32,000 bases of DNA, from the NCBI RefSeq assembly GCF_000014265.1, contig NC_008312.1:4920001-4952000 (forward strand), given 5' to 3'. A model generated the notes under the pieces. It was not told the DNA's origin and searched no databases. It worked only from the letters and a program-made list of their open reading frames with translations. A program made the position numbers and the translations under genes. Below are positions 861-32,000 of this stretch, piece after piece. Origin of the DNA: Trichodesmium erythraeum IMS101. GTDB taxonomy: Bacteria; Cyanobacteriota; Cyanobacteriia; Cyanobacteriales; Microcoleaceae. The first letter of the stretch is position 1. Each line of letters opens with the position of its first letter.

Positions 861-2648
861 ATGTCTAATAGCTATATTTATGGTACTGGAGAAGACGATC
901 TGCTATATGGTACCGGAGGAAACGATAAGGCGTATGGAAGCTCCGGAAATGATATTATCGAAGGTAAAGGAGGTGATGATGAACTTTATGGTAATGGTGG
1001 GAATGACACAATTAAAGGAGAAGAAGGCGATGATACAGTTTTAGGTCATCCTGGAGATGACTCAATAGAAGGAAACGCAGGTGATGATAAGCTTTATGGT
1101 GGTGATGGGGATGACCTAGTCTCAGGGGGAGAAGGAAACGATATGCAGACTGGAGGAGGAGGAAACGATACCATAGAAGGAGGAGAAGGTGATGACAAAC
1201 TTTATGGAGGGCCTGATGATGACTTGATCAAGGGAGAAGACGGTCAAGATAAGCTTTATGGTAATGATGGGAATGACGCAATGGAAGGAGGTGCGGATGA
1301 TGACACAGTTTTAGGTCATGCTGGAGATGACTCAATAGAAGGAAATGCAGGTGATGATAAGCTTTATGGTGGTGATGGGGATGACCTAGTCTCAGGGGGA
1401 GAAGGAAACGATATGCAGACTGGAGGAGGAGGAAACGATACCATAGAAGGAGGAGAAGGTGATGACAAACTTTATGGAGGCCCTGATGATGACTTGATCA
1501 AGGGAGAAGACGGTCAAGATAAGCTTTATGGTAATGATGGGAATGACGCAATGGAAGGAGGTGCGGATGATGACACAGTTTTAGGTCATGCTGGAGATGA
1601 CTCAATAGAAGGAAATGCAGGTGATGATAAGCTTTATGGTGGTGATGGGGATGACCTAGTCTCAGGGGGAGAAGGAAACGATATGCAGACTGGAGGAGGA
1701 GGAAACGATACCATAGAAGGAGGAGAAGGTGATGACAAACTTTATGGAGGGCCTGATGATGACTTGATCAAGGGAGAAGACGGTCAAGATGAGCTTTATG
1801 GTAATGATGGGAATGACGCAATGGAAGGAGGTGCGGATGATGACACAGTTTTAGGTCATGCTGGAGATGACTCAATAGAAGGAAATGCAGGTGATGATTT
1901 ACTTTCTGGTGATTCTGGGGATGACGTAGTCTCAGGCGGAGAAGGAGAGGATATACTGTACGGAGGAGCAGGAAACGATGAACTTTATGGTGGTGATGAT
2001 AATGATACCATTGATGATGGTGGTGGGGATGACATACTAGAAGGAAATACGGGTAATGATATACTTCGTGGTCGTGGAGGTCAAGACGAGCTCATAGGAG
2101 GTGATGGTGATGACCTCATCATTAGTTATAGTGATGCAGGAGAACCTGAAATTGCCCAACAGACAAATGAATCTAAGGTTTATCCAGATCAACCCTTTTT
2201 TGAAGCTAATGATACTTTAACTGGAGGATCAGGGGCTGATACTTTCCTATTTAGACCGTTGATGAATGCCAAGCCTGAGATTATTGAGAAACACAATATG
2301 CACAATATGCACCAAGATATGCATAATATGAACTTGCATAAACAAATCGCTGGCGAAAATGGTTCAGTCCATGATCACTGGGTTGATAGTATTGGTGATG
2401 ATATCATCCTTGACTTTAATAGAAGTGAAGGGGATAAAATTGAGATTAAGGGTCATACAGTAAAAGTAGAAAAAATTGAAGAGCTTGATGATGGAAGTGG
2501 ATCTATTGTTCATTTAATTAGTGATCAAGGGGCTAATGGTGGAGCCCACCACCTAGATAAACTAGGAACAATTACTGTTTATGGTGATCTGGTTACAGAA
2601 TCAGATTTAATAGCAGATATCTTTGGGGATGGTGCTGGTATGGGTTGA
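861..2648 (+). CDS. RTX-type calcium-binding repeat protein (hemolysin-type GGxGxDx[LIV]x nonapeptides), probable type I secretion substrate
   Basis: 595-aa ORF with AAGGAG at 848-853, 7 nt before the ATG. Roughly 45 consecutive G-G-x-G-x-D-x-hydrophobic-x nonapeptides. No N-terminal signal peptide. The C-terminal non-repeat domain carries the D.I.DF....GDKI motif that typically follows RTX blocks. Confidence 0.9.
   Translation: MSNSYIYGTGEDDLLYGTGGNDKAYGSSGNDIIEGKGGDDELYGNGGNDTIKGEEGDDTVLGHPGDDSIEGNAGDDKLYGGDGDDLVSGGEGNDMQTGGGGNDTIEGGEGDDKLYGGPDDDLIKGEDGQDKLYGNDGNDAMEGGADDDTVLGHAGDDSIEGNAGDDKLYGGDGDDLVSGGEGNDMQTGGGGNDTIEGGEGDDKLYGGPDDDLIKGEDGQDKLYGNDGNDAMEGGADDDTVLGHAGDDSIEGNAGDDKLYGGDGDDLVSGGEGNDMQTGGGGNDTIEGGEGDDKLYGGPDDDLIKGEDGQDELYGNDGNDAMEGGADDDTVLGHAGDDSIEGNAGDDLLSGDSGDDVVSGGEGEDILYGGAGNDELYGGDDNDTIDDGGGDDILEGNTGNDILRGRGGQDELIGGDGDDLIISYSDAGEPEIAQQTNESKVYPDQPFFEANDTLTGGSGADTFLFRPLMNAKPEIIEKHNMHNMHQDMHNMNLHKQIAGENGSVHDHWVDSIGDDIILDFNRSEGDKIEIKGHTVKVEKIEELDDGSGSIVHLISDQGANGGAHHLDKLGTITVYGDLVTESDLIADIFGDGAGMG
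1036..1897 (+). repeat. 270-bp (90-aa, ten nonapeptides) tandem repeat, three full copies plus about 50 bp of a fourth, inside the RTX gene
   Basis: The string cagttttaggtcat recurs at 1036, 1306, 1576 and 1846. Copies differ at only a few bases (e.g. catcctgg vs catgctgg, gataagctt vs gatgagctt). Confidence 0.95.
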
Positions 2649-6404: not shown

Positions 6405-7280
6405 TTAAATGCTTTTCTTTATATCAGATTTAGTTCTATCAATCTTTCCTTCTAAATCTGATTCTCCAATATGATTTTTACCTGTGTTATCAAAAACTTC
6501 CAAATGAGCAGATTTTCCATAATGTAGATTATCCACATACCAAAGATATCCTGTTTCTTTCTCTTCATAAATTGTCCTACCATCATATTGATTTTTAGTT
6601 CGTTTAAATCTATGAGTATCTTTTAGTATTGTTTGAGTATCTGTAGGTGGAGAGCTGGAAGATTCATCATAGTTTAACTGACTTAATTGACAACTTTTTT
6701 CCAACCAGTTTTGTAATCCAACTTTCTGATCAATACTATCTAATTGACTTAGATTTTCTGTATCATTATTTTTCACAATAGAGATAGAATTGCATTCTCT
6801 AATCTCCTGACTTAGACATTGAAAACAAGAATCTCTAAAATTAATTAATAAGTACTTTGAGTCTAAATTAATTAATTGTCTTTGTGCCGCTTCTGCTAAA
6901 GATGTATTTGTTGCATCTTTGTAATCTTCACCATCAATATAATCAAAATTATCTTGTTCAGAATGAATTCTTTCTTTTTGCCAATCCTTGGAATTGGCTT
7001 TATTACAGATAATACTGATAATTGACGTTTTTAAGCCTTTGTCTTTAATCTGATTTAAACTAGATTTAAAATTATTGCCTTTGATTGCTTCATAATTTTT
7101 AATAGCTTCAGTCGAGTAAGTTTTTATGCTTATATTTTTTGTGCTTATATGTTGTTTTTTTAATTTATTAATATCTTCAAAAATACTTTTGATAACTTTG
7201 GCCGTCTCTTCAAACTATTTTTAGGTATAGTATTGCTCTTGTAAAGACACTTCATTAATAAACATTTCAATTTTAATCAT
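6405..7280 (-). pseudogene. Disrupted gene with a C-terminal colicin E3-like cytotoxic (16S rRNase) domain
   Basis: The frame is open for 270 codons (7214 down to 6405). The only in-frame start upstream (ATG at 7280) is separated from it by TAA-AAA-TAG at 7215-7223. The C-terminus DGRTIYEEKETGYLWYVDNLHYGKSAHLEVFDNTGKNHIGESDLEGKIDRTKSDIKKSI aligns by eye with colicin E3 ...GRKIYEWDSQHGELEGYRASDGQHLGSFDPKTGNQLKGPDPKRNIKKYL. Confidence 0.5.
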
Positions 7281-20562: not shown

Positions 20563-21042
20563 CTAATTATCACGATCGCGCATCTGCTTCAACAACTCCA
20601 CTACATCTTTATGACCTTCTGAACCTACCCAGAGGAAAGGTGTCCATTTGTTGTGATTTTTTGCCCTAATATTTGCTTCCCTTTCTAGTAAAGTTTGCAC
20701 TATACCAACATGACCACTACTAGCAGCAGTCATCAAAGCAGTCATACCAAAATTAGTAGCAGCATTAATATCAGCACCGACATCTAACAATAGTTGCAAA
20801 ATTTCCTGGTTGTCACCAGCAGCAGCACCCATAAAAGGAACCCAACCATCAATGTCATTGCCATTGACATCTGAACCAGTAACTAATAATTTTTTCACGA
20901 TCTCTACATGGCCAGTTTCAGCAGCAACAATTCAAGCAGTTGAACCCTCTGAGTCTTGAGCGTTGACATCCACACCCCCACTTAGCAAAGTTTCAACTTG
21001 AGCAACATCTCCAACTTTAATGGCATCTATTAATTCTGTCAC
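20563..21042 (-). pseudogene. Ankyrin-repeat protein with an in-frame TGA at codon 37
   Basis: GTG at 21042 is preceded by AGGAG (complement of 21051-55). The translation MTELIDAIKVGDVAQVETLLSGGVDVNAQDSEGSTA-TGA-IVAAETGHVEIVKKLLVTGSDVN... runs in the same frame into the 111-aa track ORF. The stop (20932-20934) replaces the conserved Leu of the ankyrin G-x-T-A-L motif. Confidence 0.8.
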
Positions 21043-23407: not shown

Positions 23408-24664
23408 ATGGCATTAACAATAGACAAATTATTCGACGAACAATTCTATCTCGAAACTCACCCAGGAGTAGCTGAAGCAGTTGCCAATAATATTATCAGT
23501 GATGGTTTTTTCCACTTTACTAGATTCGGTCAATTTGAAGATCGTGACCCCAGTAGGATTTTTAATACTAACTTTTATCTCACTACTAATCCCGGAGTTG
23601 CAACTGCTGTAGAACAAAATATTCTCACCCCTACAGAACACTTTATCAACTTTGGTCAGTTTGAACAACGAGATCCTAGTGCTTTGCTGAACACCAGTTT
23701 TTATCTGGAGCGTTATCCAGATTTAGCTGAAGTAGTTGTAAATACCCCACTCACAGCCACAGAACACTTTCTCAATTTTGGTCAATTTGAAGGTCGGTTG
23801 CCACGCCTGTTATTTAGCGATATTTATGTATTTGGTGATAGTTTATCTGATACAGGGAATCTTTTGGCTGCTGCTGAGAATTTTTTGGGTGCTACCGATG
23901 AGTTTGTGTTGGAATTTTTTGCTCCCTATTTTGAGGGGCGTTTAAGTAACGGTCCCGTATGGGTAGAAACTCTCGCACCTCAGTTAGAATTAACATCTGA
24001 TCCTAACCTCAATTTTGCAGTCAGTGGAGCTACCACAGGAATTAGCAATAATGGCAACAACAGGTTACCAGAGGGTACACCTCCTATTTTTATAGGTTTA
24101 CAAACGCAAATTGATGACTTTATTGCAGACACTCCTACCACTGATCCAGATGCTTTATATGTAGTATGGGCAGGAGCTAATGATTATTTAGGCGCTGGAA
24201 ATTTGGATGCCCAGTCAACTGTAGATAATTTGTTAGATGCAGTAAATAGCCTTGCCGATACTGGAGCCAAAAATTTTGTTTTACCAAATCTACCAAACCT
24301 AGGAGTGATTCCAGTTGGACAGGCTCTTCCTCCTGAACGACAACAGGGATTAACTTTATTAACTGAAAGTCATAATAATACCCTAGCAACAGCTTCCCAA
24401 ATATTAGAACAAAACCCAAATATTAATATTGTTAATCTTGATATTAAAACTTTATTTGATAATATAATTGCTAATCCTGATGATTTTACTTTGACAAATG
24501 TTACAGATAATTTCTTGACTTCTGGTTTGGATGACCCTAGTGGCTTTTTATTCTTTGATGATATACATCCTACTACTAATGTTCATAGTTTTATAGCAGA
24601 GAATACGATGAAATCAATTACACAAATTCCAGAACTGCTCAGTATTGTAGAAACTTCTCTGTGA
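23408..24664 (+). CDS. SGNH/GDSL-family lipase/esterase with three N-terminal ~42-aa repeats
   Basis: Block I IYVFGDSLSDTGN, block V FFDDIHPT, and an internal WAGANDY. The N-terminus has three repeats of FYL...PGVA.AV.......T.HF..FGQFE.RDPS. Confidence 0.85.
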   Translation: MALTIDKLFDEQFYLETHPGVAEAVANNIISDGFFHFTRFGQFEDRDPSRIFNTNFYLTTNPGVATAVEQNILTPTEHFINFGQFEQRDPSALLNTSFYLERYPDLAEVVVNTPLTATEHFLNFGQFEGRLPRLLFSDIYVFGDSLSDTGNLLAAAENFLGATDEFVLEFFAPYFEGRLSNGPVWVETLAPQLELTSDPNLNFAVSGATTGISNNGNNRLPEGTPPIFIGLQTQIDDFIADTPTTDPDALYVVWAGANDYLGAGNLDAQSTVDNLLDAVNSLADTGAKNFVLPNLPNLGVIPVGQALPPERQQGLTLLTESHNNTLATASQILEQNPNINIVNLDIKTLFDNIIANPDDFTLTNVTDNFLTSGLDDPSGFLFFDDIHPTTNVHSFIAENTMKSITQIPELLSIVETSL

Positions 24665-25575
24665 GGAAAACAGAAATTACGCGGAAAAACCCGAAAACCA
24701 GGTTTTTTTAGATGTCTATTAGGCATCTAAATAAGTTTCTTATAAAGTGAAAAAATTACCGGGATTATAGGGATTAATAATAGTTAAAAATTAAGTTCTT
24801 TTTTCTCTATCAAAAATAATAGTATTTAGACAACTAATTAAGATATTTTGACTATCTTTGTAACTAATTTATTTTGAATACAAAATCAATTTTATAGCTA
24901 ATAAACTTGATTTATTCTGATAAAAAAAATTCTAAAATTTAAGTTTTTTATAACACAAATAGTAGAGCATATAGTTGAGTCTCAAATATTTAGAGATGAA
25001 ACATACTTGTTACCTATTTAGTAGTCTACTTATTTAGAGCGATCGCTCTATTCTAGATAAATTTACTCTAGTTATTGCATAGTAGTTTACCACTGCCCAT
25101 CACTCTATAAAATTACTCATATTTGACTAGAGAAAAGCTCCTATATATTCTGGAGCGATCGCTTCCAATATTTCCCTGAGAACTAGAGCAGCTATAGTTG
25201 ATGTCAAAGCCTTAAAATACTGAATTTTATTTTTTTCATCCCCCTTAAAAGGGAAGCTTAAAAACTTTTTTTTGTTTTTGGCATATACTTGCTTGGTGAG
25301 AATAATAAAGTTAATTCTAGGTAGTATAACTTTAACTTTAGATAGAAATTTTGAGATTTATCGAAAAAATATAAATAAAACTCTAGATTTGATTATTCCT
25401 GTTAATTTATAATGGAATTATTTCCATATCATAGACATACTAAAATGAAAAAAATCTCCATTATTCATCAATCAAAGCATTTCCTAATACTTATTTTATA
25501 GACACTTTTTCCGAGAATTATATAGAAAAATAGAGAAAAAAAAAGACTCTTTAACTATCAATTATTCATTATCAA

Positions 25576-26556
25576 TCATCCATTATTAGCTAGCCAGTTT
25601 TCTAAGTCTGCTATTATTGCTAAATCAAAAATTTCATCACCTAAAATATCTAACTTTTCCAAAGATAATTGCTCTATCTGAGTCTGAACTTCTGGAGGCA
25701 CTTCCCCAAACTTCCGGCGAATTTGACGTTTAACTAATATTCTCATTCCTTCCTCTCTTCCAATTCCAATGCCTTCCTCCCGTCCAATTCCAATACCTTC
25801 CTCTCTTCCAATTCCAATACCTTCCTCCCGCCCAATTTCTATTCCTTCCTTTCTGGCTAAACTAATTTGTCCTTTCTTATCTCTAATCAACTTTTCTTGT
25901 TGCTCTAATTCCTCTAATTCTTCATTACTTAAGTTAGCCATATTTGCTATATTTAATGCTGACTCTATTTCTGATACCTCTTCTAAAGAGGAAGGTATTA
26001 CTTCTAAATTTGGAGCCGAGCTAATAAAATATATCCACTTATCACTGAGGGTTTCTAATACTGACAATTCTTTCTTGAATTTGGGTAATTCTACAAACAT
26101 TAAAGTTAATTCATCTTGGTAATTAAACAACTCTGTCTCTTCTTTAAATCGGAATTTAGTAATCATTTTATCTGTGTTTTCAAATAAAACAAAATCGGCG
26201 ATTGTTAAAGCTACAAAAGGTGTCAACATCATATAACCTTGCCCTACCTCTAATTGATTTCCATAAGCTTTAGCTAGATTATAAATTACTCGTTTTTCAA
26301 AATCTTCTACGTTTAATACTTGCATTTCAATAATCACAGTAGAACCATTATCTAAAACTGCTTTTACATCTAAATAAGTCTCTTTAATAGTGTTCGTAAC
26401 TCCAGGATTATAAGGATTAATTATTTCTAGAGATTGAATAATATTCTGATTATTATAAACTATAGCATTAAGAAAGCTAATGAGAATATTTTGACTGTGA
26501 ATAGAACCAAATATTTTTTTAAAAGCAAAGTCGGTTTTAGGGCTAATAAATTTCAT
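25576..26556 (-). CDS. Rpn/YhgA-like PD-(D/E)XK nuclease-family protein with C-terminal DUF4351-like domain, copy 1 (short repeat tract)
   Basis: The N-terminal ISPKTDFAFKKIFG...YLDVKAV...VIIEMQV matches the PDDEXK_2/TIGR01784 (putative transposase/invertase) core. The C-terminal RQIRRKFGEVPPEVQTQIEQLSLEKLDILGDEIFD...LENWL matches the DUF4351 pattern. It has 4 EGI(G/E)IGRE units. Confidence 0.85.
   Translation of the reverse strand: MKFISPKTDFAFKKIFGSIHSQNILISFLNAIVYNNQNIIQSLEIINPYNPGVTNTIKETYLDVKAVLDNGSTVIIEMQVLNVEDFEKRVIYNLAKAYGNQLEVGQGYMMLTPFVALTIADFVLFENTDKMITKFRFKEETELFNYQDELTLMFVELPKFKKELSVLETLSDKWIYFISSAPNLEVIPSSLEEVSEIESALNIANMANLSNEELEELEQQEKLIRDKKGQISLARKEGIEIGREEGIGIGREEGIGIGREEGIGIGREEGMRILVKRQIRRKFGEVPPEVQTQIEQLSLEKLDILGDEIFDLAIIADLENWLANNG
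25747..25854 (-). repeat. Coding 24-bp VNTR, copy 1 (4 units plus a partial)
   Basis: tccaattccaat(g/a)ccttcc(tcccg/tctct) units run phase-exact from 25759, and the first unit in gene order is an EGIEIGRE variant. Confidence 0.95.
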
Positions 26557-26699
26557 AGTTATATATTATTTTGCTGAACTAGTATAATTTATTTTATACT
26601 ATTTCATCATAATTAAAAAGCGATCGACACTTTTTCCGAGAATTATATAGAAAAATAGAGAAAAAAAAGACTCTTTAACTATCAATTATTCATTATCAA

Positions 26700-27848
26700 T
26701 CATCCATTATTAGCTAGCCAGTTTTCTAAGTCTGCTATTATTGCTAAATCAAAAATTTCATCACCTAAAATATCTAACTTTTCCAAAGATAATTGCTCTA
26801 TCTGAGTCTGAACTTCTGGAGGCACTTCCCCAAACTTCCGGCGAATTTGACGTTTAACTAATATTCTCATTCCTTCCTCTCTTCCAATTCCAATGCCTTC
26901 CTCCCGTCCAATTCCAATACCTTCTTCTCTTCCAATTCCAATACCTTCTTCTCTTCCAATTCCAATACCTTCTTCTTTTCCAATTCCAATACCTTCTTCT
27001 CTTCCAATTCCAATACCTTCTTCTCTTCCAATTCCAATACCTTCTTCTTTTCCAATTCCAATACCTTCTTCTCTTCCAATTCCAATACCTTCTTCTCTTC
27101 CAATTCCAATACCTTCCTCCCGCCCAATTTCTATTCCTTCCTTTCTGGCTAAACTAATTTGTCCTTTCTTATCTCTAATCAACTTTTCTTGTTGCTCTAA
27201 TTCCTCTAATTCTTCATTACTTAAGTTAGCCATATTTGCTATATTTAATGCTGACTCTATTTCTGATACCTCTTCTAAAGAGGAAGGTATTACTTCTAAA
27301 TTTGGAGCCGAGCTAATAAAATATATCCACTTATCACTGAGGGTTTCTAATACTGACAATTCTTTCTTAAATTTGGGTAATTCTACAAACATTAAAGTTA
27401 ATTCATCTTGGTAATTAAACAACTCCGTCTCTTCTTTAAATCGGAATTTAGTAATCATTTTATCTGTGTTTTCAAATAAAACAAAATCAGCGATTTTTAA
27501 AGCTACAAAAGGTGTCAACATCATATAACCTTGCCCTACCTCTAATTGATTTCCATAAGCTTTAGCTAGATTATAAATTACTCGTTTTTCAAAATCTTCT
27601 ACGTTTAATACTTGCATTTCAATAATCACAGTAGAACCATTATCTAAAACTGCTTTTACATCTAAATAAGTCTCTTTGATAGTGTTCGTAACTCCAGGAT
27701 TATAAGGATTAATTATTTCTAGAGATTGAATAATATTCTGATTATTATAAACTATAGCATTAAGAAAGCTAATGAGAATATTTTGACTGTGAATAGAACC
27801 AAATATTTTTTTAAAAGCAAAGTCGGTTTTAGGGCTAATAAATTTCAT
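26700..27848 (-). CDS. Rpn/YhgA-like PD-(D/E)XK nuclease-family protein, copy 2 (long repeat tract, R/K variants)
   Basis: Same as copy 1 apart from 11 octapeptide units (two of them EGIGIGKE) and T118K. Confidence 0.85.
   Translation of the reverse strand: MKFISPKTDFAFKKIFGSIHSQNILISFLNAIVYNNQNIIQSLEIINPYNPGVTNTIKETYLDVKAVLDNGSTVIIEMQVLNVEDFEKRVIYNLAKAYGNQLEVGQGYMMLTPFVALKIADFVLFENTDKMITKFRFKEETELFNYQDELTLMFVELPKFKKELSVLETLSDKWIYFISSAPNLEVIPSSLEEVSEIESALNIANMANLSNEELEELEQQEKLIRDKKGQISLARKEGIEIGREEGIGIGREEGIGIGREEGIGIGKEEGIGIGREEGIGIGREEGIGIGKEEGIGIGREEGIGIGREEGIGIGREEGIGIGREEGMRILVKRQIRRKFGEVPPEVQTQIEQLSLEKLDILGDEIFDLAIIADLENWLANNG
26871..27146 (-). repeat. Coding 24-bp VNTR, copy 2 (11 units plus a partial)
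   Basis: 168 bp (7 units) longer than copy 1. The unit order on the + strand is A B B B' B B B' B B C', where B' ends in ttcttt and encodes K instead of R. Confidence 0.95.
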
Positions 27849-27995
27849 AGTTATATATTTATTATTTTGCTGAACTAGTATAATTTATTTTATACTATTT
27901 CATCATAATTAAAAAGCGATCGACACTTTTTCCGAGAATTATATAGAAAAATAGAGAAAAAAAAGACTCTTTAATTATCAATTATTCATTATCAA

Positions 27996-29144
27996 TCATC
28001 CATTATTAGCTAGCCAGTTTTCTAAGTCTGCTATTATTGCTAAATCAAAAATTTCATCACCTAAAATATCTAACTTTTCCAAAGATAATTGCTCTATCTG
28101 AGTCTGAACTTCTGGAGGCACTTCCCCAAACTTCCGGCGAATTTGACGTTTAACTAATATTCTCATTCCTTCCTCTCTTCCAATTCCAATGCCTTCCTCC
28201 CGTCCAATTCCAATACCTTCTTCTCTTCCAATTCCAATACCTTCTTCTCTTCCAATTCCAATGCCTTCCTCCCGTCCAATTCCAATACCTTCTTCTCTTC
28301 CAATTCCAATACCTTCTTCTCTTCCAATTCCAATGCCTTCCTCCCGTCCAATTCCAATACCTTCTTCTCTTCCAATTCCAATACCTTCTTCTCTTCCAAT
28401 TCCAATACCTTCCTCACGCCCAATTTCTATACCTTCCTTTCTGGCTAAACTAATTTGTCCTTTCTTATCTCTAATCAACTTTTCTTGTTGCTCTAATTCC
28501 TCTAATTCTTCATTACTTAAGTTAGCCATATTTGCTATATTTAATGCTGACTCTATTTCTGATACCTCTTCTAAAGAGGAAGGTATTACTTCTAAATTTG
28601 GAGCCGAGCTAATAAAATATATCCACTTATCACTGAGGGTTTCTAATACTGACAATTCTTTCTTAAATTTGGGTAATTCTACAAACATTAAAGTTAATTC
28701 ATCTTGGTAATTAAACAACTCCGTCTCTTCTTTAAATCGGAATTTAGTAATCATTTTATCTGTGTTTTCAAATAAAACAAAATCGGCGATTGTTAAAGCT
28801 ACAAAAGGTGTCAACATCATATAACCTTGCCCTACCTCTAATTGATTTCCATAAGCTTTAGCTAGATTATAAATTACTCGTTTTTCAAAATCTTCTACGT
28901 TTAATACTTGCATTTCAATAATCACAGTAGAACCATTATCTAAAACTGCTTTTACATCTAAATAAGTCTCTTTAATAGTGTTCGTAACTCCAGGATTATA
29001 AGGATTAATTATTTCTAGAGATTGAATAATATTCTGATTATTATAAACTATAGCATTAAGAAAGCTAATGAGAATATTTTGACTGTGAATAGAACCAAAT
29101 ATTTTTTTAAAAGCAAAGTCGGTTTTAGGGCTAATAAATTTCAT
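27996..29144 (-). CDS. Rpn/YhgA-like PD-(D/E)XK nuclease-family protein, copy 3 (long repeat tract)
   Basis: Same as copy 1 apart from 11 octapeptide units, all encoding EGIGIGRE after the first EGIEIGRE. Confidence 0.85.
   Translation of the reverse strand: MKFISPKTDFAFKKIFGSIHSQNILISFLNAIVYNNQNIIQSLEIINPYNPGVTNTIKETYLDVKAVLDNGSTVIIEMQVLNVEDFEKRVIYNLAKAYGNQLEVGQGYMMLTPFVALTIADFVLFENTDKMITKFRFKEETELFNYQDELTLMFVELPKFKKELSVLETLSDKWIYFISSAPNLEVIPSSLEEVSEIESALNIANMANLSNEELEELEQQEKLIRDKKGQISLARKEGIEIGREEGIGIGREEGIGIGREEGIGIGREEGIGIGREEGIGIGREEGIGIGREEGIGIGREEGIGIGREEGIGIGREEGIGIGREEGMRILVKRQIRRKFGEVPPEVQTQIEQLSLEKLDILGDEIFDLAIIADLENWLANNG
28167..28442 (-). repeat. Coding 24-bp VNTR, copy 3 (11 units plus a partial)
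   Basis: The unit order on the + strand is A B B A B B A B B C, which is a 72-bp super-repeat. Confidence 0.95.
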
Positions 29145-29229
29145 AGTTATCTATTATTTTGCTGAACTAGTATAATTTATTTTACACTATTTCATTATAA
29201 TTAAAAAGCGATCGCTTAGGATTTAATTG

Positions 29230-29932
29230 GGATTTGGAATTGGTAAAAGAGATATTAACAGAATTAGAATTAATTTTAGATATTACAGAACAAGGTAGAG
29301 AAAGACCAAGTGAATATAAAAACCAAGAAAAATATCAAATATGAAAAAAGAAAAATCATACTTTTAAAAATCAAATAATAACGACACCAAAAAGAACAGA
29401 AATAGTGGATATAATAGTAGGGAAAAAAGATCCAGGAAGTGATGTAAAAATATTCAGAAAACAACCGGATAAACTTGATAAAAAACAAAAATTTTAAGGA
29501 GATAAAGCTGATGAAAGAGTAGAAATAACTACTACACCAAAAAAGAAACCAAGAAAAAAATAAATGCTACCAGAAATCAAAGAATAAAATCAAGAAAAAG
29601 CCAAAAAAAGAATATTTGTAGAATATGTAATAAGATTAATTAAAATATTTTTACTTCCTAGAGAAAGATTCAGATTAAAATATAATAATTATCCAAAAGT
29701 AATTTTAAAAATATGTGGTTTAGTGCGACTAATAATTAGCTAATGTATATTAGTAAAAATCATCAAAAACTGAGATAAAAACAATAAATCAAAATCTAAT
29801 AAATATTTGAATTAGTAAAACGAAGTATCTCTGATAACCATAAAACTGTACAAATTAACTATCTTCAAGGTGAGCGATCGCTCCACTAAAAATAGTTAGT
29901 ATAAGCTTGAGTATTTTTGGAGACGTCTATTA
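29230..29932 (+). mobile_element. 5'-truncated second copy of the decayed IS5-type element seen at 3062-4152
   Basis: Collinear with about 3500-4152: ...aaaaatcatacttttaaaaatcaaataataacg..., aaatatgtggtttagtgcgactaataa, gcgatcgctccactaaaaatagttagtataagcttgagtatttttggagacgtctatta. There is a right IR but no left IR. The left boundary abuts the tandem array. Confidence 0.6.
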
Positions 29933-29934
29933 GA

Positions 29935-30390
29935 GAAAACCAAACTATTGTAGTTGAGAATTTAGCCGCAGGTAACATGGTCAAAAACCATAAATTAGCT
30001 AGAGCAATAAGTGATGCTAATTTGGGAGAATGAGTCAGACAATTAAAATACAAAGCTGAATGGTATCGTCGTACATTAATAAAAATTGACAGATATTTTC
30101 TTAGTTCCGTCGCGTTGCTCTAACTGTAGTTATGTAGTAGAAAAATTACCTTTAAATATTAGAGAATGAGATTATTCTGAATGCGCTAGTCACCATGACA
30201 GGCAGATAAACTGCCATTTTCAACATTTTGGCTACCCGGCAGGCAGTGTTAGTCTGGGCCGCCGTCTTTATCCCTGAAGACAGTAAATTTCGGAGGGCAA
30301 GCGCTATGAAGCAGAAAGTCCCTAACAACAATGCTAGGACATCCCGCCCTGCCTTGAGTATAGAAGTGTCTGGAGGATGTCAACAGAAGA
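29935..30390 (+). pseudogene. IS200/IS605-family TnpB (OrfB) C-terminal remnant with the region where the omega-RNA/right end would lie
   Basis: ENQTIVVENLAAGNMVKNHKLARAISDANLGE*VRQLKYKAEWYRRTLIKIDRYF, then after a frameshift SRCSNCSYVVEKLPLNIRE*DYSECASHHDR (RuvC-II glutamate region plus a CxxC...CxxC zinc finger). Stops at 30031-33 and 30167-69. The N-terminal ~60% is missing, and the fragment begins directly at the IS5-type right end. Confidence 0.6.
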
Positions 30391-31720
30391 AGTAACTATT
30401 AATTATTGTAGACTTTCCATGACCAGGCTAGCCCTTGATAAGAGTTCTAAGGGGGAAATGACAGGATGGAAATAACAATAATATAGGGCTATTGATTTTT
30501 TCGAGGTATTGTGACCTCCAGGATATTCTTCAACTCTGCTAATTATCGAGTCTCTTTCTCTAATGAGGGTGGAGCTTCCTGGGAATTTGGGATCGATGAA
30601 TTATTCTACTTGCAAAAATTGTCTGAGGTGTTAGCGGAGGATGGTGGCGGTAGCAACATTGCCTATTTTAGGTTTTGCTCTTTTACTGGTATAGCCCTAC
30701 TGTTCCTCTAAAATGTTTGTTAGGCAGCTCATTGGTAGTTTACGATTTTTCCATCCAGGTTGCTCTGGTTCAGCCATAAAAATTATCTATGTTTCCCCCA
30801 TGTTTAATTTTTCTCCATGAAAGTTGTTTATTGGTCTTCAAAAATACAATTGACTTTGAGTATTTTGTTTTTTGTTGCTTCTATTCTAATTAGTTTCCAC
30901 TGGTTCAAGAAAGCATTTTTTTGAAATTGTTATTTATTAGTAACAGAGTGACTATTTTCTGCTTTTTTAGTGATGTAGAAAAATAATTTTTGACGGTAAA
31001 TTTGCCGTAAGTTTATATTATAAATAATTTTCAGTTTGTAGTCAATTATATTTAGTATTTCTTAGGTTGATGACCATTGCTTGTTCCCTATTCCTGAAAT
31101 AAGAAAGTTTTTTTTAGCTAAGATGAAAGGGATTTTTTTCGGCATAGTTAATTTTTTGAGTAGATTTATATTTAAGTTTTTATGGGTAATAAGGGTATGA
31201 TTGCTGGGGAATTAGTTTATTTGTTATTAGAGACCTCTCATTTTTTTTGAAGTATGTGTAATTTATGAGGGAAGTATTTTTAATGACATTTCTGAATAAA
31301 TAGAAGATGAAATATAGCAATATTTGGCTAGTTTAAATGGTTTTATTAAGTAATGAAAGTTTTTTATAAGGTGGGTTTAATCATTAGTTTAGAAAAAATA
31401 GATAAACTTAGTTTACTTAAGAAAATAGGTGGCGCGATCGCTCTTGATGAATTGTATAAATAAACTGGTTTTTCTTAATTTTAATATCTGGCTTTATTGT
31501 TTTTTAATGTGGTAAAATTAATGGTAAAAAAAATGTTTAAAAAAAAGTGTTTGCTAATAGTATTACTGATGTGGAGGGCATTGTTATTAGTACCGAAGTT
31601 ATTAATGAAGTTGGTTCCATTCTGAAGCGAAATGTGTTTCAATAGACTTGAAGATTAGTTGGTTATATAGTATTAAGGGTAAGTTTAAGATGTTTAAGGT
31701 GGATTTCTGGTGGGGTTGCT

Positions 31721-32000
31721 ATGGGTAATGAGGTTATGAGTGCTGGACAATTGTTGAAGCAGGCTAATCAGTTGAAGAGGGCTGGGAGGTTGGATGAGGC
31801 GATCGCTCTTTATTATCAGGTGATTGAAATTAATCCTAATTTTGCTTGGGCATATAATAATTTAGGAGATGCTTTAGTTAAACAGGGTAATTTAGACGAG
31901 GCTGTTGCTTACTACTTTGAAAGCTTAAAACTGAATCCAAATTCAGCTTGGTTACTTTATGGCTTAGGGGAAGCTTTAGCCAAACAGGGAAATTTAGAAG
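31721..32000 (+). CDS. TPR-repeat protein, N-terminal part (runs off the window)
   Basis: The ATG at 31721 opens a frame to the window end: MGNEVMSAGQLLKQANQLKRAGRLDEAIALYYQVIEINPNFAWAYNNLGDALVKQGNLDEAVAYYFESLKLNPNSAWLLYGLGEALAKQGNLE. This gives three canonical 34-aa TPR units. Confidence 0.75.
   Translation, partial: MGNEVMSAGQLLKQANQLKRAGRLDEAIALYYQVIEINPNFAWAYNNLGDALVKQGNLDEAVAYYFESLKLNPNSAWLLYGLGEALAKQGNLE

Follow-up and report, generated by a model that had tools for sequence, protein, structure and literature searches.

The 32,000-nucleotide (nt) window of the Trichodesmium erythraeum IMS101 genome analysed here (contig NC_008312.1, positions 4,920,001 to 4,952,000, with all coordinates below counted from the first letter of the window) contains an array of three intact, head-to-tail genes of the Rpn nuclease family. 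These open reading frames (ORFs), called A, B and C, lie on the minus strand and encode proteins of 326, 382 and 382 amino acids (aa), respectively. The locus is probably a young birth-and-death array of Rpn toxin-nuclease genes, with a hypervariable repeat placed in an RpnS-type module and with a role in phage defence. The features that look unusual at this locus are documented properties of the Rpn family, and the array adds a clean new case to a known kind, not a new type of system.

Anatomy and origin of the array

Direct-repeat and tandem-repeat searches returned three array units spaced by ~1.3 kb, each with a 24-nt repeat tract inside, and alignment of the units combined with an exact boundary search gave lengths of 1125, 1296 and 1292 nt for units A, B and C, respectively (Table 1). 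The original prediction, made from the sequence, was that an Rpn-like gene with PD-(D/E)XK and DUF4351 domains had recently been triplicated head to tail, and the junctions, the ORFs and the hidden Markov model (HMM) matches all agree with it. The copies are in the same orientation, as proposed, and the strand is corrected here to minus. The divergence among the copies amounts to 0.2-0.6%. Within the 876 nt of non-tract coding sequence per copy, 5 sites vary among A, B and C: two are private to A and both synonymous, matching the earlier count, three are private to B (T118K and two synonymous changes) where two had been counted, and none is private to C. The private changes of C are found elsewhere, two in the first tract unit (synonymous), three in the upstream spacer and one in the downstream spacer, and a 4-nt insertion lies ahead of the ATG of B. 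The post-duplication substitutions outside the tract comprise 4 synonymous and 1 non-synonymous changes (P 0.007-0.02 under neutrality).

Both internal junctions are identical and read, on the plus strand, GCGATCG/ACACTTTTTCC (the slash marks the junction), with GCGATCG kept at 26620-26626 and 27916-27922. The left flank of the array is ...TTTTATAG/ACACTTTTTCC and the right flank is GCGATCG/CTTAGG, from which a microhomology of 1 nt at the breakpoint follows. Identical junctions point to one illegitimate duplication, whose breakpoint would lie in a highly iterated palindrome (HIP1) site with 1 nt of microhomology, and to a later unequal homologous exchange, which would have made the third copy. 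The array had been said to end in a HIP1-like GCGATCG; a full HIP1 octamer is present there, with the boundary inside it. HIP1 (GCGATCGC) occurs 21 times in the 32-kb window vs 0.05 times expected from shuffles, and the chance of a random breakpoint falling in or at such an octamer is ~0.006. The further proposal of amplification via HIP1, resting on one event, is suggestive only. No general HIP1 rule emerged at the junctions of tandem pairs in other genomes, since L047 and L154 have HIP1 and L045 and L117 have none. In L047, HIP1 stands within a few nt after the stop codon of both rpn genes, and in L154 it stands in the spacer.

A truncated insertion sequence (IS) had also been described as abutting the array and as a possible agent of its amplification. 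The first statement is loose, the nearest IS remnant, that of a DDE_Tnp_4 transposase, being ~350 nt beyond the array, and the second is not borne out, as the junctions were searched and no IS sequence, terminal inverted repeats or target-site duplication was found at them. Further out, from 29917 to ~30260 on the plus strand, there is a probable TnpB/Cas12f-like (IS605 OrfB) pseudogene remnant (...IVVENLAAGNMVKNHKLARAISDANLGE*...), which matches Pfam PF07282 with an E-value of 1.4e-4, below the gathering score. On the opposite side, ~665 nt downstream of copy A, lies the decayed remnant of a fourth, divergent paralogue with ~58% identity, one frameshift and three in-frame stops. The presence of this remnant next to the array indicates that the locus has a longer birth-and-death history.

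Table 1. Coordinates of the array units, genes, repeat tracts and neighbouring remnants in the window; b1, X, Y and Z are REEG codon blocks.
Feature	Positions	Strand	Description	Basis
Unit C	27923..29214	-	First in transcription direction; 67-nt upstream spacer + gene C + ~73-nt downstream spacer	Unit alignment, boundary search
Unit B	26627..27922	-		Unit alignment, boundary search
Unit A	25502..26626	-	Last in transcription direction	Unit alignment, boundary search
Gene C	27996..29144	-	382 aa; identical to ABG52349.1; PDDEXK_2 aa 6-232, DUF4351 aa 322-378	
Gene B	26700..27848	-	382 aa; private T118K + two R->K tract units	
Gene A	25576..26556	-	326 aa; identical to ABG52347.1 / WP_011612692 / Q10ZH7	
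Tract C	28167..28439	-	11 x 24 nt + 9 nt; b1'(Y Y X)x3, 72-nt super-unit; KEGIEIGR(EEGIGIGR)10EEG = 23 GxxxG periods	
Tract B	26871..27143	-	11 units; b1(Y Y Z)x2(Y Y X)	
Tract A	25747..25851	-	4 units + 9 nt; b1 Y' X; 9 GxxxG periods	
HIP1 octamer GCGATCGC	29208..29215		Outer array boundary inside	
Decayed N-terminal remnant of fourth, divergent Rpn/PDDEXK_2 paralogue	24722..24911	-	aa 1-64	tblastn E 2e-8, family HMM domain E 5e-13
DDE_Tnp_4 transposase C-terminal remnant	~29564..29743	+	In-frame stop; not at junction	

Family identity and the repeat tract

The assignment to the Rpn family comes from profile searches. In Pfam, the PDDEXK_2 domain (PF12784) was matched with an E-value of 1e-49 over aa 6-232 and DUF4351 with 3e-19 over the last 57 aa, and the NCBIfam model TIGR01784 (Rpn family recombination-promoting nuclease/putative transposase; COG5464) gave 149.3 bits vs a cut-off of 52.1, on a scale where Escherichia coli K-12 RpnA reaches 160.9 bits. 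Both the PD-(D/E)XK and the DUF4351 domain of the original prediction are hence matched, in genes whose earlier annotation was that of a transposase/invertase. The functional residues described for RpnA are D11, D63, E82, Q84 and R94 (Kingston et al., J Bacteriol 2017, PMC5350276). In the present family, all of 33 diverse homologues have D63, E77, Q79 and R89, and at least 90% have D9. A local hhalign alignment to RpnA pairs D63 with D63 and ExQ with ExQ, an alignment which by itself is not significant; a shallow profile of close relatives against RpnA alone gave no significant match, and a more diverse profile was required.

The tract was described in two ways. Tandem Repeats Finder (TRF) reported ~4.5, 10.2 and 11.5 copies of the 24-nt repeat in A, B and C, respectively, with a 72-nt higher-order period in C. 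A unit-by-unit parse counted 4, 11 and 11 octapeptides, with EEG at the end of each tract, which reproduces the unit counts of the original prediction and upholds its claim that tract length, set against only 5 other variable coding sites, is the main difference among the copies. At the DNA level, block Z is 5 nt apart from X and 1 nt from Y. Tracts B and C are equal in length and share the three-super-unit architecture, and two super-units differ by 5 nt each; the variant found in two B super-units must have spread through intra-tract exchange. Several tract events took place, then, in the time in which B and C accumulated three differences over their 876 non-tract coding nt, and it follows that the tract evolves much faster than by point substitution. 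All changes in the tract keep the frame, in multiples of 24 nt; the DNA differences are mostly synonymous, and the peptide GREEGIGI is preserved. Changes in tract length would proceed via in-frame slippage or unequal exchange, in steps of 24 and 72 nt. On the plus strand, the repeat mechanically produces antisense readings of the tracts, the ORFs 25769-26122, 26893-27414 and 28189-28710 (117 and 173 aa, with PIPIPSS... repeats), which were considered as genes and rejected, being without support.

The locus had been proposed as a contingency or diversification locus, and this proposal holds in part. The tract does diversify, and its length varies across homologues. In the sense of phase variation the proposal fails, because all tract changes are in frame and alter protein length without switching expression on or off. 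The likeness to phase-variable simple-sequence contingency loci consists in a hypermutable tandem repeat within a gene; the difference is that the IMS101 repeat unit is a multiple of three and never shifts the frame. Another likeness is found with the GxxxG glycine repeats of FliH/YscL, which also have Gly runs at every fourth residue, and NCBIfam FliH models match aa 197-285 weakly (E 1e-4, far below cut-off). This similarity is compositional and periodic only and does not imply homology.

A comparison set of 164 loci from genomes and metagenomes, with 151 distinct full-length proteins, was assembled. A run of Gly at every fourth residue stands at the same position in 151 homologues and spans 1-20 periods, built from motifs such as EGIEQG, EGREEG and EGKLEG or from octads such as EGIEAGRQQG. 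With 23 periods each, copies B and C have the longest tracts in the set. Members of one 90% cluster differ by 8-aa steps, from 302 to 342 aa, a ladder which is soft evidence of natural variation, as many members come from short-read assemblies. Same-strand tandem pairs were also found: one in Limnofasciculus (L045) is 99% identical with equal tract length, L110 is 90% identical with 4 vs 9 periods, L117 is 88% identical with 3 vs 1 periods, and in L047 the two genes are ~1.9 kb apart and have 7 vs 5 periods. Further same-strand pairs are present in L154 and in a second Trichodesmium species (L005). Pairs with unlike tract lengths indicate that duplication followed by a change in tract length recurs. 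The cyanobacterial PDDEXK_2+DUF4351 families of Okeania, Dapis, Microcoleus, Coleofasciculus and Tychonema share with the IMS101 genes the architecture, at 50-90% identity, a tract of 1-20 periods at the same position and occasional tandem pairs. The IMS101 array differs from them in having three near-identical copies and the longest tracts, whereas the other pairs are older (80-90%), with the exception of L045 (99%). A junction-specific search of Joint Genome Institute (JGI) metagenomes returned 0 matches, and a protein-based metagenome scan found no relatives at the level of T. erythraeum, the best being 79-87% identical.

Relation to the Rpn toxin-antitoxin systems

The family had been called functionally uncharacterised in the original prediction, which is no longer so: Zhong and others have shown Rpn proteins to be toxin-antitoxin "genes within genes" (Zhong et al., PNAS 2023, PMC10400941). 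The full-length proteins (RpnL) are toxic DNA endonucleases, which are inhibited by a small protein, RpnS, translated in frame from internal starts of the same gene. RpnS is also encoded on its own, by genes that carry the DUF4351 annotation in some species. The RpnS module contains four-residue repeats whose number varies between strains, and RpnL is blocked only by RpnS of equal repeat number; when one repeat was added to RpnC-S or RpnC-L, neutralisation was lost unless both partners had it. Arrays of rpn genes were shown to originate in tandem direct duplication and not in transposition, and the plasmid-borne RpnP2 was shown to protect against T-even phages (Zhong et al., 2023).

The IMS101 genes share with E. 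coli RpnA-E and RpnP2 the TIGR01784 model and the D...ExQ catalytic pattern. They also share a C-terminal helical module that follows G-containing four-residue repeats, variable in number among close relatives, an arrangement in tandem direct duplications without inverted repeats or target-site duplications, and stand-alone C-terminal modules annotated as DUF4351. They differ in having PF12784 instead of PF04754, a longer form of DUF4351 that E. coli RpnS does not match in Pfam, an octapeptide (GREE+GIGI) with 24- and 72-nt DNA periods and up to 23 GxxxG periods, and no conserved internal ATG.

The relation to RpnS was examined through the C-terminal module. When a diverse cyanobacterial profile was compared with E. 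coli RpnA/C/E by hhalign, the last repeats and the DUF4351 helices aligned to the RpnC repeats and the RpnS helices, with an E-value of 8.5e-5 and a probability of 60%. An exhaustive HMMER search based on the 65-aa C-terminal module yielded 1199 representatives at E <= 0.001. Among the best 150 of these 1199, for which 149 sequences were retrievable, 116 of the 149 are at most 150 aa long, and 99 of the 116 start with Met. In 42 of the 75 Met-initiated proteins (of those 99) with at least two GxxxG periods, the first repeat Gly lies 8-20 residues past the Met, a spacing which is the layout reported for RpnS by Zhong et al. (2023; PMC10400941). Some of these small proteins have an N-terminus near-identical to that of E. 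coli RpnC-S, as seen in P0159 (MELTTSWEEKGIEKG) vs RpnC-S (MMTLAQWFEEKGIEKG). The abundance of stand-alone small proteins indicates that the repeat+DUF4351 module is a separable unit. Five proteins of 141-180 aa (P0141, P0144, P0145, P0151 and P0153) have two consecutive DUF4351 modules, some with GxxxG repeats preceding each, and no description of such a two-module architecture was found in the accessible part of Zhong et al. (2023; PMC10400941).

Taken together, these likenesses suggest the following mechanism. The N-terminal PD-(D/E)XK DNA endonuclease would be an RpnL-type toxin, and the (GxxxG)n segment together with the small helical DUF4351 would form an RpnS-type oligomerisation/antitoxin module, which might also be made as a separate small protein. 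By analogy with E. coli RpnC, the pairing between C-terminal modules and full-length nucleases would be tuned by the repeat number. Copy A, with its 4 units, would accordingly be insulated from B and C with their 11, giving at least two toxin/antitoxin specificities in the array, and the array would most likely serve an abortive-infection-type phage defence.

Several observations weigh against this interpretation. The N-terminal Pfam family is PF12784 here vs PF04754 (Transposase_31) in RpnA, RpnC and RpnE, and the E. coli RpnS regions score nothing on Pfam DUF4351. A search for a conserved internal Met found one 5-20 residues before the tract in 58 of 182 homologues, which equals the background of 32.5%. 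A promoter-like scan of the locus was not above shuffled expectation, and a terminator-like site was not found at the locus. On the structural side, AlphaFold2 gave a mean predicted local distance difference test (pLDDT) of 45.6 for full-length copy A and of 63.4 for a C-terminal 124-aa model, with DUF4351 alone being confident; the tract was left without a resolved structure (pLDDT ~25-40), and a continuous helix through it, given 3 Gly per 8 residues, is uncertain. In a Foldseek search against the PDB, no match was below E 0.6, and RpnA-S (7TH0) was not recovered. Finally, the neighbours (GDSL lipase, glycosyltransferases, ChlH and ABC transporters) are of a housekeeping kind and form no recognisable defence island, and none of the PADLOC models matches the Rpn locus. 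Two other searches were also negative: a PDB sequence search found no match, and an Rfam scan of 24500-32000 returned nothing.

Elsewhere in the window, three further ORFs were recorded. The first (6405-6776, minus strand, 123 aa) adjoins znuA-like and ABC ATPase genes and matches PADLOC NsnC at 2.5e-52, but only in the C-terminal half of the profile (positions 147-266 of 269). Rather than a defence gene, it may be an ABC permease gene that is truncated or mis-started. The second (20563-20898, minus strand, 111 aa) has an ankyrin-like match (PADLOC PDC-M72A 1.6e-18, Ankyrin 3.5e-8), and the third (861-2648, plus strand) encodes an RTX protein of 595 aa, in which HemolysinCabind repeats were matched 17 times (E 2.6e-95).

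Alternative explanations and significance

The same locus might be read without any selected function, as a neutral, very recent segmental amplification whose tract merely slips and whose copies are heading for decay. The low divergence leaves little time for selection, a decayed fourth copy adjoins the array, a defence-island context is missing and slippage of 24-nt repeats requires no selection. This account is nevertheless unlikely, considering that the three ORFs are all intact, that the 4:1 ratio of synonymous to non-synonymous changes departs from neutrality, that the tract DNA variants keep the peptide GREEGIGI, and that unrelated genera repeatedly have pairs, 80-90% identical, whose tracts differ in length, from which it follows that such pairs persist long. 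It is likewise improbable that these are Rpn nucleases without an intragenic antitoxin, in which the module would act in cis or as a dimerisation arm and the tract would space two nuclease heads, as TAEL does in EcoR124I/II, and would have no part in toxin-antitoxin pairing. This precedent is cited by Zhong et al. (2023; PMC10400941): the HsdS subunits of EcoR124I and EcoR124II have a helical spacer with an in-frame four-residue repeat, and specificity changes with the number of repeats, although the family is unrelated and the repeat number there spaces DNA target half-sites instead of setting protein-protein pairing. Neither a conserved Met nor an obvious ribosome-binding site precedes the tract, and the Met directly after it (M271 in copy A) is unconserved, being I in close relatives. 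Against this stand the abundant stand-alone, Met-initiated repeat+DUF4351 proteins, as well as P0137 and P0142, which begin at the position equivalent to L223/I224 of IMS101, encoded by TTG-ATT, TTG being usable as a start codon.

Past annotation and the IS debris in the flank are what could favour a mobile element, a "putative transposase" that copied itself three times into one site. We know of no autonomous transposase of this fold, and the identical internal junctions, the contiguous units and the lack of terminal inverted repeats or target-site duplications make such an origin very unlikely; in addition, transposition found no support in the work of Zhong et al. (2023; PMC10400941). An assembly artefact, in which a single gene was mis-assembled as three or the tract lengths were mis-assembled, is also highly improbable. 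Four short-read contigs (L001-L004) are 99.9% identical to the flank, and two of them (L001 and L003) carry one copy between the same flanks. These one-copy contigs have the majority allele at the A-private sites and a tract, a0 p r s, which corresponds to the shortest path of k-mers through copy B; for both reasons they look like collapses, and they show what a collapse would yield. With such signatures, the short-read contigs were rejected as evidence on copy number or tract variation. The three copies, on the other hand, are told apart by private substitutions and by differently composed tracts, the proteins match the deposited finished genome, and the independent contig L002 starts within the tract of an upstream copy and extends past the inter-unit junction to the last copy. 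At its positions 1-130, L002 has at least 5 consecutive identical "q" units, a run seen in none of the three reference tracts, which reflects either a loop in the assembly or a genuine variant of the tract in that culture.

A more far-reaching interpretation can be tentatively put forward, though we regard it as doubtful. The array might be a snapshot of the birth of new Rpn immunity specificities, in which a gene is duplicated in tandem, an abrupt change in repeat number (4 vs 11) insulates the new copy from its parent at once, and length, not sequence, is the selected pairing code. The basis for such a length code is that B and C keep the same tract length despite their reshuffled 72-nt super-units. 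If true, filamentous cyanobacteria would generally diversify through within-genome arrays of toxin-antitoxin pairs that are length-coded and mutually orthogonal, possibly with a non-ATG internal start.

Among marine nitrogen fixers, Trichodesmium is of global importance. Its genome is repeat-rich and has no identifiable cas genes (Pfreundt et al., 2014), which makes its defence repertoire of interest. So far, the pairing rule based on repeat number has been demonstrated in E. coli RpnC by engineering one repeat (Zhong et al., 2023; PMC10400941), and a very young array with already remodelled tracts is a convenient natural test case for it. In a broader sense, the PDDEXK_2+DUF4351 expansions of filamentous cyanobacteria are placed here with RpnL/RpnS, which offers a better annotation for many genes now labelled as "putative transposase".

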